Source: Obrimoposthia wandeli (lineage: Eukaryota). From it: a stretch of 64,000 nt of DNA. Below, one piece after another: positions 27,463 to 49,668 of this stretch; the first letter of the stretch is position 1; the number at the start of each line of letters is the position of its first letter. A program made the translations under genes and the position numbers. Under the pieces are notes generated by a model. That model was not told the DNA's origin and searched no databases. It worked only from the letters and a program-made list of their open reading frames with translations. The stretch covers positions 62,001 through 126,000 of the forward strand of contig CDROCS010003983.1 of the NCBI GenBank assembly GCA_977020255.1. The letters are read 5' to 3'.

Positions 27463-27961
27463 ATGTTGATAAACATCGAGAAGAAGATAGCAATATCAGA
27501 GAAGAGGATCAATTCCATTGCATTGAAGAAAAGAAGCAAGAAACAGTCTATGGATTTTATTCGACAATTAGATATCTCCAATGATGTCATCAAATTGAAG
27601 AAACCAAAATTTCAAATTCATATGGGATATGTATTTACTCAAAAATCCTATAACATACCACTTCTCCAATCATGTTCATGTAACGAAAATCAAGTTTGAT
27701 TATATCATCAGAGATATCCATGAAGAAGATGTTATACAATTGAATGAACTCATGCAACAATTGGATATTGGATATAAAATCCATAGAAATGCTATATTGG
27801 TGAGAGCTGATGAAGGTATTTTTGCAGATTATTGGAATGTTGAAAAGAATATGAAAAATGGAAAATGGACCCTATTCATCATGATTCAAGGATTTATGAC
27901 CAAGTGTGATGGAAGTTTAAAACCTATATGGAAGATTACCGACGGATGTATAATGTTATAG
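27463..27961 (+). pseudogene. Polinton B accessory gene, putative OB-fold/SSB-like family (frameshifted)
   Basis: C-terminus ILVRADEGIF...KWTLFIMIQGFMTKCDGSLKPIWKITDGCIML. Confidence 0.65.
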
Positions 27962-33458: not shown

Positions 33459-33870
33459 ATGACCGTTATGAATATAACTGAGACATTTAGTGAGCCTCAA
33501 CAAGGTGGCGAATTACCATATTTTGTAGGTAAACAGTACGGTTCGGAATGGTTGAGAACATTGGGACAGTTAGTATTCCCTATACTGAAACGATTAGGTC
33601 GTGTTAGAGTAATACATTTCAAGATATATTAATGAACAAAAAATCTGTGTTACCTATGCTTAAACAACATGCAGTAGGGAAGTTGCCGGAATTATACCAG
33701 AGGCTAAGGAAGCTTTTGATACAGTTGTTAAACATATTAAAAATCGACGTAAGCGTAAAGCGAGTGAAGTAGCGGATGTGTCTGAACCTGCAGCTAAAAC
33801 GCAAGAGGGTAGTGGTAGAAAGAAAGCATCTAGTATAAACAAACGTAGAAAACGAGGTACAATATTTGCT
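33459..33870 (+). pseudogene. Polinton A1 PX-type (QxGxG amphipathic) protein
   Basis: QQGGELPYFVGKQYGSEWLRTLGQLVFPILKRLG, homologous to ORF 45014. Confidence 0.75.
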
Positions 33871-33875
33871 TAATA

Positions 33876-36470
33876 ATGGCTTGTGGTAAATCTGAATTAT
33901 GTATTTCCTATCAAGCTTTGCCTCAGGTAGTTGTAAATAGCGATAGCTTTAAATATAGATATCCAACAAACAATATTACCGTGACAAGAACAGCAGAGAT
34001 TCTGTTTAAAATCCAAGGTTCAGATATTGAGTACTTAGATTTGAATGATACCTTGTTGTTTGTGAAAATTAAAGTAACGAAAACATGGTACAGACCTAGT
34101 TGTTGCTGATAATGTGGTTTCATCAAATTTCTGATGTATTCACTATTTAAAAGCATAGATATAACAATGAATAATACTGTAGTTGAAACCCATCCTCAAT
34201 ATGCACAAAAAGCTATGATTGAAACCATACTAAACTATGGGACAGACACTAAAGACACTTGTTTGTCGAGTATAGGTTATGATGAAACTGTAAATAATCG
34301 TACAGGTTGGGCCGCGGATTCAAAAGAAATTGACTTGTGTGGGACTCTTCGATCTTATATTTTTGAGCAACCAAAGTATCTCTTACCTGGTGTGTCTGTC
34401 ATGGTAAGACTTGTACCTAATAAATCTATGTTTAGTCTGAATGACGGAACAACTCCATCACGAATCAAGTTTATCTAAGCTAAACTTAAAGTCAGAAGAG
34501 TCAAAGTTGAGAATGATGTTTTAATTAGACCGTGGTGACCCCTATGCTACCCTATCGTCTTATTATGCTTATTATACTTATTATGCGAGTTTTATTATGG
34601 TTGTCAAATTATCTTATGGATTATAAAAAATTGGAAGTGATCCAAAGAAAGGAAATCAATAAAACTATCTGTTATTCTCTTCTCGTTATTTTCTCCATAC
34701 CCTCTAAATTGCTTCTCATATCAATTACCCTCAATTAAGACAATACATGGACATAATATTGGTCTTGAATCTAGGAATTCTGTATATCCCTATACTCGCA
34801 GAAAGCTAATGTTTCATACCTTAGCCATCAGTTCTACGAGGTTTTACAAGGATCAAATGTTTGATGATGAACAATTGCCTAAATTTGTGTTGATTATGTT
34901 GCAAGTAGGTGAAAAACCTACCGGCAATGGTGTTAGGATTAGGAATTACAAAATTAATTAATTATTTACATAGAAAAATGAAACTTTGAAAAGCAAGGCT
35001 GAATAAAATATATTTTTTTAAAATTTAAAGTAAAATTAAGTTTGATGATATTGAAATAAGTTTAAGTATCTTGAAAGGTCGTGTGTAATCTGAAGTATAT
35101 AAGGTATTTTAGAAAAATTAAAAGGGCCCAAAACATAATAATAACAGCAGAAATTAAAGAAGCAAGAATCAAATTATCATCAAAAGAAAAGACATTCAGA
35201 AAAAATAAAAAACTAATTAACGACTGAGAACGAAACAGCCGTCATCAGTCAAGTTATCTTCTTTCAAGCTCGTGGAAACATACTTGATTAACGGGAATCA
35301 ACCATCTGGTAGACGATCTCCATATACGACTGGAAACGAAGCAGCCGTCAACGTGATGAGGTAAGAAATATTTAGCTTCTATTAAGCTAATTGTTTTCCT
35401 TTCAGATATTTATATTATAAAATATGAAAACAAGGATTGTTAGGGAAAATTTGGATTATTGGAAACGAGGCATTAATTGGAAGACCAAGAGGTGACTAAA
35501 ATATTAGGATCGCAGCACTATTAATATCAGTCGTTCAGGACACAAGGAAAATAAGCAAGGACCGGACAGACACGACGAATTGCCGGATACTAGGACTCTA
35601 GCATCTCGACGGAGAATAGCGGCCAGCCTCTGTGGACCATTCGATACTGGAATTAAAGGTAAAAAATATATAATTGAATATTAAATCTATTGTTGAAAAA
35701 AGATCTAATTGAATATAAAAACTATTGTTGAAAAAATATCTAATTGAATAATAAAACTATTGTTGAAAAAAATTATAATTGAATATTAAGATCTAATTGA
35801 ATGTTAAAACTATTGTTGAAAAAAGATCTAATTGAATATTAAAACTATTGTTGAATAATATCTAATTGAATACTTGAATCAACCCACCTAGGACGAGGAC
35901 GATACCAATCCCGTTATACACCACACTACAATAAGGGAACCTTTTCAATACCTTGTGCACACAACCCTGTACACACCTCACAATACACTAGTATAAAAAT
36001 CCTTCAGACTTGAGACTAAGTTAAGTGAGATAAAACCTAAATAGGCCACGACCATCTGCAAGCCCTATTGCTACAGAACTCACGTTGGGGTCCTCCATAC
36101 AAGGATCTGGTTTTATATAGAAACCCCAACAATGGTACTACAGACTCTTCAATTTTCGATCATTCTGATGTTAGTACTATAAGTATTGCTAGAATCAGTG
36201 CTTTTAACGAATCTGAACAGGTGAAACCACCTTTTCATATCTTCAATCTATCATTAGAAATATGGATAATTTGGATAAGAATATAAACAATGGCGTATCA
36301 CTGGATGAATTCAAAAACATTTATCCGTTTTTCACTTTTGTATCTGACTTTGATATCACACAAAACCAATTTGCAAAACAGGGTAATTTACGTCTTGACA
36401 TCAAGTTTCACAAGTCATTAACAGTCCCGTAAAACGAACTGATTTACGGGATTTTGTCAAAAGTTCGATT
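33876..36470 (+). pseudogene. Polinton A1 hexon/major capsid protein, interrupted by X2
   Basis: MACGKSELCI...ILFKIQGSDIEYLDLNDTLL...FEQPKYLLPGVSV...GNLRLDIKF; the frame resumes after the ATGG TSD. Confidence 0.85.
34931..36131 (+). mobile_element. Solo-LTR-like element X2 (1201 bp) with an internal tandem array of about 35-bp units (35672-35872)
   Basis: TGTTAGG...CCCCAACA termini, 4-bp TSD ATGG (34927-34930 / 36132-36135). Confidence 0.8.
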
Positions 36471-36636
36471 TTAAATTAAAACGCCAAGTCAACATTTCGT
36501 ATAAACATCGACTTTCTAAAAATAAACTTTAACTGTGATTGGAGGAATATAAAAATATATTGGCTCAATGTTCAATTAGCTTATCAAGCAGAATGCCCGA
36601 TATAAATGGATAGGTAGCTGATTACAACACGCAGTT

Positions 36637-37173
36637 ATGGATATGTTTAGTTTGTGTAAAACAGGTACTAAACTTAGTCTCAAGAACCTTGACGACGGAT
36701 TTTATCTAAGCATTGACAAGGACAAAAAGTCTCTGTGTCTAACAAAGAAAGACTCAGAGAAGGCGCATTTTATTGAATATCTCTTCAAGCATTTAACGGA
36801 TAAAACTCCTGTTAAACTGCATCAGATCGTGGACGCCAAAGAAGGGGTCACTTTGTGCTTCAAGAATAATGGCTTCAAACTCACTCAAATGTACAGTTTC
36901 AACTTCATTTTACAGACGGATCCCAATGCTCTCGCTCTGCAGAATCACACAGAGTTGAACATTCCAGATCCATCTCCCGATCTATTCTGTATTTTTCATA
37001 CCTCATGTCCGAGTGTTGGAAAAGGCAGCTCGAAATTCAAATCCGATACGTTCGTATACAATCTACTAATTGCCGACAACTCCGGAGTACCTACAAATAA
37101 AACTTTCGAAAGCTGGGTTAAACTGACAGCATATGTCAAGAAACACCGGAACTCCTCCTGGATATGGAACTAA
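36637..37173 (+). CDS. Intact 178-aa ORF, candidate beta-trefoil (IL-1/IL-18-like) protein
   Basis: Uninterrupted ORF among pseudogenes; by-eye pattern similarity to IL-1-family strands (see findings). Confidence 0.45.
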   Translation: MDMFSLCKTGTKLSLKNLDDGFYLSIDKDKKSLCLTKKDSEKAHFIEYLFKHLTDKTPVKLHQIVDAKEGVTLCFKNNGFKLTQMYSFNFILQTDPNALALQNHTELNIPDPSPDLFCIFHTSCPSVGKGSSKFKSDTFVYNLLIADNSGVPTNKTFESWVKLTAYVKKHRNSSWIWN

Positions 37174-37904
37174 TAAAATTGCATTTATTTTGTCTCATAG
37201 ATCTTTTGTATAGAAAATAAATATCTCTCAACCCCTAATTTTATTGCTGAGTTATTTGCTTTTGAAACAGGAAATGTTGCAATAACCCTTGACTTACAAT
37301 ATAATTTTAGAAAATTGTCAACTTTTATAAATATTCCATTAATGTTTGTTAATTTGCTTTATCACGTTACCCTCATTTACGGTCTCAAATTAGAACTTCT
37401 CTTAATATGACTTTAACTTTCTCCAGTTTAAATTATAATATAAAAATAAATATATAAAAATTAGAGGAAATTTTTATAATATAAAATTCGGAACTCAAAT
37501 GTTATTATTTATTGATTTAGTTTTCAGTTTTGGAAATTGAAGTTTTTAATGTAAAATAATTAGCATTTGTTTAATATCTTCATGTCATATTTTTACATAT
37601 TTTGAATTTTCTTTTTAGAAATGACTAACCAGACAGAAGACCGAAGAAACTGGTATGTGGAAACTTCAACAGTCAGAAAGGTTTACAAGAAGTATTTGGA
37701 ACTAGGCTCCATTAAAGATCTGTATAAAAGAGGAAATTTGAGTTTTTCAATGAAACATACGAGGGAAATAAGCAAAAAAAGCTTTTATTTAGCTCACAGG
37801 ACATAAAGCATGAACATTTTTGAATAAATGTCCTTCAGCAAAATCTTTCAGACACGGATCGATGGATGATCATCTTTTACTAGAAAACCTAACTCAATAA
37901 AGAA

Positions 37905-38652
37905 GAACAAAATATATTATTTTTTGCATATTTGAGGAGGTATAAATGGGATCGGTCTAGTTCTAACTCCAAATGTGCGCAGAGGTTAAATAGTGTAGAA
38001 TACGTATTTATATATTTAGGCAGGATGGAACTTCTTGTCATAGACAAATATCAACAAAACTTATTTATATAAGATTTTCTTCAACAATCAGATTGGCCTT
38101 CACGAAGTCGAGCAACAATATTATTCAGAATATGTAAATTAAGCTCAACAAAAATATATCAATAAAAAACTTCAAATTCAGATGAACATTGGTTATTAGG
38201 ACATAAATGGATACATAAATGTGGCATACAATACACATTATCTATCAGAAATAAAGGGAAAGTATATATACAGTAAAGGGACAGGAAAACTTATGTCATT
38301 TTGACAATTACTATTCCAGAATGTACGGGCCTCATTACAGTCTTGAAGACTTAAACTCTTGAATTCAGTTATGGGCGGCATTTCAGTTGTCTTTTGTAAA
38401 TCTTCGAAGGATTTTGCAAATTTAGGGTTAGGGTTAGGGATATGGGCGTGGTTAGGGTTAGGGAGCTTTATAATTTTGAGAGTTTCATTATGTTTTATTC
38501 ATATATCCTTATATATATCTCACGCAAGATATAAATAAAATGAGTAATAATAACATACATTCATGAATACAACCAAACAAATCCTCAACCAATCATGTGA
38601 TGTTAGATAGAATATAAACAATTCAGACATTATTTCTGATCACAATATTGAT
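37905..38652 (+). repeat. Direct copy of the Polinton B segment 26742-27475
   Basis: Near-identical from TTTTTTGCATATTTGAGGAGG to GATCACAAT(G/A)TTGAT. Confidence 0.9.
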
Positions 38653-38783
38653 AGTAGGTAGTAGGTAGATCAACTAAACCTAAGTAGGTGGATGTGTCCG
38701 GTCTAATCCACACCCCCCTCCCCCCTTGTCCTTTAAAACCGTGCATGTGTGTGGAGTGAAATTTCGTGTAGGTGTGTGGAGTC

Positions 38784-39629: not shown

Positions 39630-40133
39630 TTAAACATAAAACAACATATTGGCTTCACTCAAAGTCCAGAGAGGCTGCATTGTCCCGTCATCAGCAAAAT
39701 ATCCATTCAGACGTATTGAGATATTCCATAGTTCTTCATCTAGAATTGGAGCAATCAAATATCCTAGATCATCTTTAAAATCCAGACTGGGATCAGTTTC
39801 AAGCTCGAAACAATTTCCTTCATATACATAATCAGGAATGTAAAATCCCAAAATATTTTTCCGTTGATCAAAATCAGTTGTTGTTAAAATTTCGATGATA
39901 TATTTTTTCTCCACTTTTGATATTTTCACAGAATTCATAACTCGTATAATTTGATACCTCTTTAATATATTACATAGTTTTCCTTTTGAAATTCTCTCTG
40001 GATAATAAAAATTTGCTACACATCTCTTATCCATTCTAAAATAAGGAAACTGATTAAAAACAATGTTTATAAAAAATACACATAAGATACAAATATTTAA
40101 AAAATAAAACTGATTATTAAATGAAAGAAACAT
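39630..40133 (-). CDS. Polinton A2 accessory protein 2, putative OB-fold/SSB-like (true start probably MDKRCV)
   Basis: C-terminal WNISIRLNGYFADDGTMQPLWTLSEANM; copy at 2404-2720. Confidence 0.6.
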   Translation of the reverse strand: MFLSFNNQFYFLNICILCVFFINIVFNQFPYFRMDKRCVANFYYPERISKGKLCNILKRYQIIRVMNSVKISKVEKKYIIEILTTTDFDQRKNILGFYIPDYVYEGNCFELETDPSLDFKDDLGYLIAPILDEELWNISIRLNGYFADDGTMQPLWTLSEANMLFYV

Positions 40134-40168
40134 AGTAAAACCGATTACAATTTATTACACACAAAAAG

Positions 40169-40645
40169 TTAAAACATAGAAATATGAGCACGTTCAATTT
40201 TCCACATAGGCAACTTTGTTCCCATTTCATCTTTCTTGTAACCATAAAGTCGAATTGTTACAGTCCATTGCTTCTTTTTCGGAAACGCATCAATATCAAC
40301 ATATCTTCCATAGTCATCTAGAAATGCTTCATCGGCTCCTCGGATATAAAATTCGTTCTTATTGAAAGTAGAATTCGGAACTGCCTTTTCAACTTTCTGT
40401 TTAAGATATTGAAAATCAGGTTTTTGAATACCTGATAGATAGTAGCTGAACTTTCTTCTTTCAATTGTCACAGGATTTACTAAAGCAATCAGTTGAGCCT
40501 TCTTCAAGAATCTGACTTTGTATTTGAAATATTGTTTCACTTCTTCATACATATCCTTATCCGATTCTTCAAACATTTCTTCGTCATCGCTTAATACCCG
40601 TTGGCTATCGTCCATCGTTGATAATTGTCTTTGGTATGAATGCAT
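40169..40645 (-). CDS. Polinton A2 accessory protein 1, putative OB-fold/SSB-like
   Basis: Intact 158-aa ORF ending QWTVTIRLYGYKKDEMGTKLPMWKIERAHISMF. Confidence 0.65.
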   Translation of the reverse strand: MHSYQRQLSTMDDSQRVLSDDEEMFEESDKDMYEEVKQYFKYKVRFLKKAQLIALVNPVTIERRKFSYYLSGIQKPDFQYLKQKVEKAVPNSTFNKNEFYIRGADEAFLDDYGRYVDIDAFPKKKQWTVTIRLYGYKKDEMGTKLPMWKIERAHISMF

Positions 40646-46495: not shown

Positions 46496-46758
46496 TGTGT
46501 TATAAAAATAAATATTTGTAATGTTTTATTTTTAATTATTTTTTTAAAATCCCTAAAAATTATAAGGTAAAATAATAAAAGACATAAGACGAAATATTTT
46601 TTAATAAATTTATTAAAAACAACATCACAATGAGATCTGTCAGCAAAATAAGGTCCATCCTAAAAAATGTATTGAAATAACAAAACGTTAGAGTCAAGTT
46701 GCCATAGGGATCTAAAATTAAAAAAAACTAAACTAAAAAAATCAAAAATGAAAACAGT

Positions 46759-46827
46759 TTAAATTTGGAAGTGTCCATAAGCCAGGCTAGCGTTCTTTTC
46801 TACCCAAAAGCGCTTGTCGTCATTACT
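46759..46827 (-). pseudogene. Extreme C-terminus of Polinton A2 pPolB
   Basis: SNDDKRFWVEKNASLAYGHFQI* matches the DDKR...LAxGH end of Polinton polymerases. Confidence 0.75.
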
Positions 46828-49668
46828 ACAGGATCGGACCAAGTAACATATAGGGACATGTTACACAGCTTCGATGATAATGGTAACGAACTGGCAAGCC
46901 TATACAATGCATGCATTGACGAACAACGGACTCCCGACTCTTGGCGAACCTTCAAGACTAAGTTCATCCCAAAACCTAGGAAACAGCGCTACGATGACAT
47001 CACAGCTTGGCGACCTATCGCAGTCATGTCATGCGTTTACAAGATATTTGCGTCAATCATCACAAGACGGATGAGTGATTGGGCCTGGAAGAATAAAATA
47101 CTGGATCCACGACAAAAATATCTTGGTGCCTACGAGGGGTGCTATGAGCACAACACGGTGATTAGCCTGATCACCTCGGAAGTATTGCGAAAGAGGAACC
47201 AAGGCTGCGCCTACATCGCCTTCCTAGATCTGGCCGATGCCTTTGGATCGGTGCCAGTCTCTTTCATTTGGGGAATGCTGGAAAGAATTAACGTGGCCCC
47301 AGCCGCTATCAGACTGCTTGAAGATGTATATAAGCAGAATATGACCAACATTGTCTGTGGTGACAGGAAAATCAACCGGATCCCAATAAAACGAGGAGTG
47401 CGACAAGGGTGTCCACTATCGATGCTCTTATTTAATATGAGCATCAATCCGGTAATAGAGGCCACAAACCAAAGCCATGGCTCAGGATACAGATTTGAAA
47501 CAGGTGAAGAAATCCGGACCCTGGCATACGCCGATGACCTTGCACTCATATCTAGCTCCAAAGAAGGACTCCAGGCCCTGATCAATACCGCTGACAAGAC
47601 TGCGAGTACACTACAGCTGACATTCCGGCCCAGCAAGTGTGGTGTCCTACGAATACCTTACAGGAAAGACAAACCAGCTGACAATCTCATGTTGAGAGGA
47701 GAAAAAATACCAGAGGTAACTGCGGACACGCCATACCGATACCTTGGCAGCGACAGGACTGCAAACGCCAAGCAACATTGCGAGGAGCTGTTGGCTGAGG
47801 TGCTTCGACTGACCACGGCAGTGGCAAAAAGCGAACTAAGACCGTATCAAAAGACTGACGCATACAATACCTTCATTCACTCAAAGCTGATATTTGTATT
47901 CAGACAGGGAAACCTGGTACACTCCCGCTTATCCTGCAACCGAACAGACGAAAGGGGCTTCGAAGGACTCCTAAGGAAAGTCATAAAACCAATCGCGGGA
48001 CTAGACTTAGCCAACAGCCCTATCGGAGTTCTCTATGGGCACAAGGACCGTGGAGGTCTTGGGCTGACAAGGATTGAGGACGAATATAACATCCAGTCCA
48101 TCATCCAGACGATAAAGATGGCAAATGCACGCGACAGGGACCTGAAGAACCTATTTAGGCGTGAGCTCACTGAACAATTGAAGTTTCCTAATCCGCCAAT
48201 GACCTTCTCCGAAGCAGTTCAGGGGTTTAATGAAGGGACCCTAGCCACTAACATGAAAGATACGGGACTTTGGACGCGGCTGTTCTACGCGGCCAAGAAA
48301 TTCCAGAATGAGCTAAATATCAAACTAGAACTGATTGAGAAGGACCAAGCACTCAATCTTTTCATAACCAGCGACCATGGAGGCAGTTTTCTCATGCAGT
48401 TCAAGACCTACAAGGCCACAAGTAAGGCGATGCATAACATTGTGCAACTCAGCCAGAGTCACAAGGTTCTCGAAGACAAGCTAGCGAGTCCAATATATAA
48501 GAACGCCACATCAGACACAGACATTAACCGGGCCATCATGAAAGGCTGTCTGACGTACCGAGGGTGGTTCTTCATCCACCGCGCAAGGTGCGGGCGCATG
48601 AAGGTACGAGGCCCCAGGACTGATATGATCGCCCCATGCAGGAAGGAATGCCAGGAGCGAGAGTCGATGAGCCATGCAATCGTTGGTTGTAAGCTCATAG
48701 CAAAACTACGAATTCAAAGACACGACATGATCTGCCGAGAAACTGCAAGGGTCATGGAACTAAAATATCCAGGACAGGTAACTCAAGAGCTGACCCACTT
48801 ATGTGTAGACGATAACGGAAACAGCTGCAGACCACGACCAGACATAACGATCGAGACTGACTATAAGGTGATGCTGATAGAGATCAAGATCCCGTTTGAC
48901 TCTGACATGTCATTTGATCTGAGGCTCACCGAAACTATGTCCAAATACGCGGAGCTCGTTGAAATGCTAAAGACCCGCCACCCAGAAAAACTCGTGCAAC
49001 TCTACGCGCTAAGGATCGGGACCCTCGGCTTCTGGCCTGAAATCAATAACCGGATCTTTGCAAATGCTGGTTTTAAAGCAAAGGAAATCAAGGATATCAA
49101 GATCCGACTAACCCTGAAAACCATCGAACATACAGCGGCCTCGTGGGCTAAATTCTCGAGTCATACAACTGGGATCCTGGATAAGTTGTCAGCCGAGGAG
49201 CTGGAGAAGATTGAGGCCTGGAACTACGTAAAATAAAAAAAACAAAAAAAAACAAAAAAAACAACAACCAACAACAACCAACAACCAACAACCAACAACC
49301 AACAACCAACAACCAACAACCAACAACCAACAACCAACAACCAACAACCAACAACCAACAACCAACAACCAACAACCACCACCCAACAACCACCAAACAC
49401 CAAACACCAACCAACAACCAACAACCAACAAACAACAGCAGATTCGTGACTGCCGAGGGGCCCAAAACTGTACCCGGCGATGACGTAATAGTACTGAAAA
49501 AGTACGCGGACCTACTCAAAGTTCCAATGACGAAACCGAGACCCCAAGCAGCTACTGTTACTGCTACCGAGGACCAGCAGCATATTGAAACCCGGACCTA
49601 CGTAAAGTAGAAGAGGCCCCTATGGGGCCTTTGAGAAATTGATTGCGTTCACATTAATAAATGTTTGA

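Follow-up and report, generated by a model that had tools for sequence, protein, structure and literature searches.

An orphan multigene family with two-speed evolution in a Polinton cluster of the Obrimoposthia wandeli assembly

Does an intact open reading frame (ORF) lying among broken Polinton genes encode an interleukin-1 (IL-1) type cytokine, and did it come there as cargo of a mobile element or as part of the host genome? This question was raised by a 64,000-nucleotide stretch of the Obrimoposthia wandeli assembly (GCA_977020255.1, contig CDROCS010003983.1, positions 62,001 to 126,000 of the forward strand; hereafter the window, in whose own numbering positions are given), where a first-pass annotation had read a 178-codon frame as an IL-1/IL-18-like beta-trefoil, either carried by a Polinton or representing a host exon caught in the cluster. 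In this study, we found that the frame belongs to a real orphan multigene family evolving at two speeds within a Polinton cluster, that it is not regular Polinton cargo, and that it is probably not a stray exon. The cytokine claim should be treated as a lead until the fold is known.

First, the frame runs from ATG to TAA without a stop, as did only 1 of 20,000 sequences obtained by shuffling the bases of 36637-37173, and the intact ORF described earlier was thereby borne out. Its reported lack of a signal peptide agreed with a hydropathy proxy (not SignalP): the best 12-residue Kyte-Doolittle mean in the first 40 residues was 0.46, indicating no hydrophobic leader. Its reported position among mostly broken neighbors was also correct, since it sits just after the broken hexon gene of Polinton A and 1.5 kb before the terminus of Polinton B. 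The gene consists of the following features:

36491..38063, plus strand: gene block common to the copies (promoter, ORF and 3' flank), from the copy alignment
36601..36606, plus strand: TATAAA box, present in 9 of 9 aligned copies, from sequence and copy alignment
36632..36636, plus strand: CAGTT, putatively initiator-like, its A lying 32 nt after the TATA box and its AG directly before the ATG, from sequence and alignment
36637..37173, plus strand: single-exon ORF, 178 residues, about 20.3 kDa, leaderless, member of a family found at 10 places, from translation and genome search
37172..37177, plus strand: AATAAA polyadenylation signal overlapping the stop codon, from sequence

Because it is framed by a TATA box, a CAGTT that we take to be initiator-like and an AATAAA on the stop codon, the ORF appears to be a complete single-exon gene whose leader is very short, not a stray exon, and transcription would start from the TATA/CAGTT promoter. 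The stretch from TATA to ATG is nearly identical across the nine aligned copies. The CAG before the ATG, previously taken for a splice acceptor, is indeed present, but it lacks a pyrimidine tract and forms part of CAGTT at the spacing of a TATA box plus initiator, and the acceptor reading was rejected on these grounds. No coding exon was found upstream, and no PDZ domain matched in the 3 of 13 upstream frames scanned (the two longest and one of 77 residues). The failure to find such an exon, and the presence of core-promoter and poly(A) signals at the gene itself, left the idea of a captured host exon unsupported. No poly(A) tract that could be the scar of a retrocopy was seen after it.

Four read runs (X1-X4) were available from one sample, their kind being unknown. 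A 1,897-nt contig of X1 is collinear with L022:7534-9428 across the AG, which would show the absence of a splice there only if X1 is RNA. Cover by X1 ends at about 37230 and is sparse outside the gene region, whereas X2-X4 continue there; coming from one study and of unknown type, these runs were not used as evidence. As a separate observation, X1 contigs reach about 1.8 kb upstream of the ATG (L022:7195-9428), with no convincing family match in any upstream frame of that region. In the 3' flank of the gene block, a short frame (37621-37803, plus strand) follows a good splice acceptor and resembles by eye the start of a Tc1/mariner DNA-binding region, with no Pfam hit.

Second, a protein search of the assembly returned 13 matches at 10 places on 5 contigs. 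The full frame is kept at six places, namely the window copy, L002-L005 and L007, the last with 7 residues deleted in frame, while L006 carries one stop, L008 and L010 are frameshifted and L009 is cut at codon 106; thus, six gene copies are intact while neighboring Polinton genes are broken. None of the 10 places is more than 50 kb from a contig end, and they are therefore probably one duplicated cluster that broke the assembly, possibly together with haplotypes. Rearranged Polinton pieces surround every one of them. A hexon gene lies upstream only at the window copy, L002 and L010. The other seven places share a different, low-copy flank from about position -146, free of Polinton genes and at least 1.4 kb long in L003-L005.

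No homologue was found outside the assembly in a set of 5.8 billion proteins, either with the 178-residue query (9 candidates) or with a six-sequence family alignment (176 candidates), and a search of longer proteins (1,998 candidates) was equally negative. There was no match in viral contigs (169 pattern hits) or metagenome contigs (597), none of 5 family sequences was on record in exact form, NCBIfam gave no hit, and PHROG rows appeared only at E values of at least 0.026. Within the assembly, three broken, ungapped 54-codon look-alikes of residues 38-91 occur among Polinton B genes on C1211 (346806-346964, 357328-357486 and 364845-365003; L099-L101). The look-alike has about 38-40% identity, a genome-wide E of 0.3-3 and 24.9 bits at profile positions 38-91; its DNA is 46% identical over 162 nt, with no significant wider alignment and no intact relative among 12 DNA matches.

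Third, the copies differ in a strongly segmented manner. Substitutions were counted over 7 copies, with segment boundaries picked after viewing the data, and the copy alignment divides the gene as follows:

36637..36762, plus strand: variable N-terminal segment (codons 2-5, 16-22 and 38-42)
36763..37005, plus strand: constrained core, codons 43-123, with 3 nonsynonymous and 5 synonymous changes (nonsynonymous to synonymous ratio, pN/pS, 0.16)
37006..37170, plus strand: hypervariable, recombining C-terminal segment, codons 124-178 (pN/pS 1.74)

The core ratio is significantly low (binomial p 0.013), whereas codons 1-42 and 124-178 together have 47 nonsynonymous and 11 synonymous changes (pN/pS 1.20; Fisher p 0.017 against the core). 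The ends carry 0.22 nonsynonymous changes per site, compared with 0.038 changes per site in the 3' flank (22 in 579 columns), and these changes are clustered and often multi-base. The four-gamete test was failed by 262 of 1,275 informative site pairs, and one contig of run X1 (kind unknown) joins an L003-type promoter to a window-type frame start. The protein is constrained in its middle, and its end segments are old or fast-changing and have been shuffled between copies. A conserved core with recombining, fast ends is what one would expect of a gene for recognition between host and pathogen or predator and prey. However, the ratio for the ends does not exceed 1 significantly (p 0.36), and old recombining alleles or relaxed constraint could explain the variation.

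What does the gene encode? The product probably folds as a beta-trefoil. With two variants, the ten best family hits in the ESM Atlas all fell in one family or clan, that of the trefoils (ricin B, fascin, FRG1, I66, AbfB, CCL2 and CDT; scores 0.91-0.93). Residues 13-67 gave a local match to FGF1 (1fmm, E 1.2), the only PDB hit of that fragment search, and residues 12-48 aligned pairwise with two host fascin repeats at E 0.001 and 0.014. On the other hand, a number of results speak against this fold and the role built on it. Two AlphaFold runs were unusable, with predicted local distance difference test (pLDDT) values of 35.5 and 39.5; AlphaFold had no useful alignment because no homologue was found outside the assembly, and fold searches with these models were uninformative. 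Both low-confidence models show residues 39-53 as a helix, although strand 4 of a trefoil would have to lie there. The Atlas recognition values (1812 and 1621) lie under the 2300 level, one third of shuffled proteins also yield a single-clan list, and no IL-1 cluster stands among the listed neighbors. A profile of eight fascin repeats scores the family at shuffle level (-1.5 to -1.7 for the 5 scored copies, reached by 1,079-1,242 of 3,000 shuffles), internal three-fold repeats were not significant (p 0.04 in one test, 0.07-0.89 in another), and equally weak PDB matches pointed to non-trefoils, namely an RA domain (E 0.48), the GTPase-like AGAP1 (E 1.2) and ADP-glucokinase (E 0.11-0.14). The trefoil proposed in the first-pass annotation therefore drew some weak support from the Atlas clan and the FGF1 and fascin matches, but none from the failed structure models.

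It is somewhat unlikely that the protein is a trefoil of another kind, FGF/fascin-, lectin- or protease-inhibitor-like, serving non-self recognition or acting against prey or parasites. The Atlas neighbors named above, such as the I66 inhibitor, ricin B and CCL2, fit such a protein, and so does the first repeat, whose likeness to FGF1 and host fascin extends to the F-x-E motif in strand 4; the region 12-50 looks like a single repeat of FGF and of fascin/FRG1. However, the lectin repeat motif of ricin B (Q-x-W or Q-x-F) is absent from the 178 residues, the fascin repeat profile gave no signal, and Pfam FGF (PF00167), fascin and ricin models hit neither the ORF protein nor any of the six family members or 7 fragments. 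An FGF family search of the assembly found no match among 2 candidates. Unlike fascin with its four tandem trefoils, the ORF is a single 178-residue unit of a hypervariable multigene family.

A small alpha/beta protein that is no trefoil, for example with a ubiquitin-like (RA) N-terminal half, also seems rather doubtful; the IL-1 likeness would then be chance. The helix shared by both AlphaFold runs and the lack of a significant internal repeat would suit it, as would the match of the L002 copy to the RA domain of RGL1 over 65 residues, which is the RA hit given above. Yet the models are of low confidence, Atlas features favor trefoils, an RA-like pattern fits none of the six copies, and a profile of 13 host RA-domain fragments, which has low power, stayed at shuffle level (hhalign probability 0.35%). 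If the product is another trefoil or another fold, the gene still represents an orphan family with strong two-speed evolution in a Polinton cluster.

We next consider IL-1 itself. The Pfam IL1 model (PF00340) matched neither the ORF protein nor any of the 6 family members or 7 fragments, eight PDB sequence searches at E<=10 returned no IL-1 chain, and a genome search with PF00340 did not pick up the ORF. Thus, the resemblance to IL-1/IL-18 that had been noted by eye was not confirmed. The missing Pfam match weighs little, because standard sequence searches including HMMER are reported also to miss invertebrate IL-1, the IL-1anc proteins described by Fontenla-Iglesias et al. (2026; PMC13736523, of which the accessible part is used here and below). 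According to that part, IL-1anc occurs across eumetazoans mostly as a PDZ domain plus trefoil, with a small subset lacking PDZ; the examined trefoils span 3-5 exons with two conserved central introns, strand 9 carries an (F/L)ES motif, and the genomes of Table S1 include no flatworm, which leaves the host lineage outside that survey.

It is unlikely that the family descends from IL-1anc, having lost PDZ and introns through retroposition or a mobile element and then expanded as a cytokine or receptor antagonist, although several features are reminiscent of this lineage. The ORF is leaderless, of bare-trefoil size like the PDZ-less AjapIL-1.1 and PclaIL-1.2, part of a lineage-specific expansion and invisible to Pfam and BLAST, as the accessible part of PMC13736523 describes for IL-1anc. 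By eye, it shares collinear short motifs with several rows of Table S2, those of sea stars above all. A strand-2 stretch, LYLSID, is identical between L003-type copies and PminIL-1.6, F-x-x-Y-x-F stands at strand 4 and PV-x-L-x-Q at strand 5, PSPDLF resembles P-D-P-x-L/F-F before strand 8, and an F-x-S is followed six residues on by a hydrophobic pair. An ordered four-element pattern over residues 23-144 is present in 5 of 6 copies but in none of 50,000 shuffles or 219 other frames; of 8 Table S2 rows checked by eye, it fits PminIL-1.3, PminIL-1.6 and ArubIL-1.2, whereas AjapIL-1.1, AtenIL-1, PclaIL-1.2, DgigIL-1.1 and PmaxIL-1.1 each miss one element. This pattern was drawn up after the ORF had been seen, and hand-made fascin/FGF-like and GTPase-like patterns were also found in 0 of 50,000 shuffles, each fitting only 1 of 6 copies. 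Pattern rarity was therefore rejected as a discriminator.

Other features separate the ORF from IL-1anc as reported in the accessible text. The trefoil is only predicted, no PDZ is present, and one uninterrupted frame in the six intact copies contrasts with the 3-5-exon layout; the absence of a poly(A) scar and of any IL-1 hit in Pfam, PDB and Atlas also argues against descent. FKS rather than (F/L)ES would stand at the presumed strand 9: it occupies residues 134-136 in 5 of 6 intact copies, L007 having lost it, and FES lies at 157-159 in 2 of 6, the strand number depending on the assignment. A search of the assembly for a cognate Ig-TIR receptor with the TIR model (PF01582) gave 8 matches among 34 candidates, none receptor-like in the frames read, an exon-by-exon search being insensitive; in accessible text, PMC4484250 reports the Toll-like receptor pathway to be absent from platyhelminths. 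Separately, several related frames at L085-L087 and L089-L090 (C728, C4458 and C6806) carry a single TIR domain or two in tandem, with a long helical-looking region ahead in one case; no receptor ectodomain was seen in the frames read.

If the strands are assigned as in IL-1, the variable patches coincide with the beta1/2, beta3/4, beta10/11 and beta11/12 loops. According to the accessible part of PMC6596353, most of these loops in IL-18 and IL-1 contact receptor site A or the co-receptor; site A of IL-18 involves mainly the beta1/2 loop, beta2, beta3 and the beta10/11 loops, whereas beta11/12 engages the co-receptor. A second, equally possible assignment (a trefoil at 11-146 plus a tail) would instead put most of the C-terminal variation outside the fold, and the correspondence with receptor-contacting loops would then disappear. 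We therefore do not file the ORF as an IL-1 member. If the product is an IL-1-type trefoil, IL-1anc would gain a lineage that has not been surveyed so far. Its form there, multicopy and hypervariable with neither PDZ nor introns, would be one that the accessible part of PMC13736523 does not list among the family's features, and the variable residues would outline the surface that binds the receptor. The literature, in which subscription journals were thinly covered, showed no IL-1-like gene reported from a Polinton or a flatworm.

The remaining part of the question is how the gene came to lie among Polinton genes. The flanking features are as follows:

33849..36455, plus strand: gene that we take to be the Polinton A hexon (major capsid), broken and with insertions, from gene order, with no Pfam hit
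36456..36490, plus strand: 35-bp junction at which the hexon, cut a little short of its normal 3' end, gives way to the gene block standing in the place of the protease, seen at 3 of 40 scored hexon ends, from hexon-end comparison
38683..38701, plus strand: left terminus of Polinton B (AGTAG...), the ORF lying outside it, from flank comparison

Many unrelated left flanks converge on the AGTAG at 38683, which marks the start of Polinton B; placement between termini was judged for B, whose left terminus was mapped. The neighbors in the window matched an integrase clearly and an A32 ATPase and an adenoviral protease weakly. A search for hexon-A 3' ends gave 393 candidates, of which 40 were scored and 30 loci fetched. 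Only 3 of the 40 scored ends continue into the gene block, and the 30 fetched loci have a protease within 1.5 kb downstream in 27 cases (one inverted) and the ORF gene in 3. Moreover, the 40 ends are spread over 39 contigs, compared with 5 contigs, near their ends, for the ORF gene. Together with its place outside the Polinton B terminus, this left cargo as a regular module, one of the two origins first proposed, without support.

It is improbable that a single Polinton A lineage captured the gene as a virokine or decoy in place of its protease and was scrambled later: the gene is compact and intronless with its own promoter, adjoins a hexon end at 3 of its 10 places and other Polinton pieces at every one, has a weak broken look-alike among Polinton B genes on C1211, and recalls the non-core cargo, such as proteases and kinases, carried beside core genes by nematode Mavericks (accessible part of 10.1101/2022.07.12.499685), but it is not dispersed with the element, the protease holds its slot at 27 of 30 hexon ends, the upstream flank at 7 of 10 places is free of Polinton genes, and viral contigs gave no match. 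A host gene joined secondarily to Polinton debris and amplified in a Polinton-rich cluster fits best.

On balance, the explanation that we tentatively prefer, as something short of an even chance, is an intact single-exon gene at ten places encoding a leaderless beta-trefoil recognition protein, whose variable ends would contact a partner much as an IL-1-type ligand or decoy does. A host gene would have been amplified by segmental duplication in one Polinton-rich cluster and would be transcribed from the TATA/CAGTT promoter. Its product, presumably folded as a beta-trefoil, might be released without a signal peptide, and the variable patches may form one binding face for the partner. Action like an IL-1-type ligand appears to be the single likeliest mechanism.

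Which animal carries the gene? The assembly is mixed. Besides dozens of bacterial-type COX1 genes, many of them free of stops, it contains animal mitochondrial COX1 of two kinds, in one of which AAA is translated as Asn and ATA as Ile. The AAA=Asn code fits flatworms or echinoderms; the host is likely a flatworm, to which the divergent COX1 of this kind presumably points. Polinton B is common to the window and the contigs with this COX1 (at about 87-96%), whereas the mollusc-like mitochondrial contig has nothing in common with the window. The AAA=Asn COX1 occurs in eight near-equal copies, each on a contig of its own (L036, L038-L052); on C652 and C2590, Polinton B is found within 4-12 kb of the copy. 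The second mitochondrion (C5352, L035; order ND2-COX1-COX2-ATP6) is one that we take to be of the mollusc group.

It is highly improbable that a flatworm-type animal, whose phylum reportedly lacks TLR/IL-1R signaling, keeps an intronless IL-1-derived family, once in a Polinton, whose receptor-binding loops were diversified by gene conversion and which acts on the IL-1 receptors of another animal. If true, it would be the first invertebrate example of an IL-1-like ligand that serves as a mimic or decoy between species, and also the first with a link to Polintons. The assembly also contains a mollusc-like mitochondrion, as noted above.

Finally, several other features were observed around the Polintons of the window. 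Just after the protease of Polinton B, an intact 834-residue frame (46732-49236, plus strand) resembles by eye a non-LTR (lacking long terminal repeats) reverse transcriptase with a C-terminal endonuclease, and a broken copy lies at C3263:32445-35048. Polinton-linked frames (39630-40645, minus strand, and 27599-27961, plus strand) form a paralogous family with 24-33% mutual identity and no Pfam match, and occur in tandem in Polinton B. The window also contains recent internal duplications, 13641-20533/49699-56603 (6.9 kb, 98.4%) and 21475-23380/58008-59930 (1.9 kb, 97.4%).
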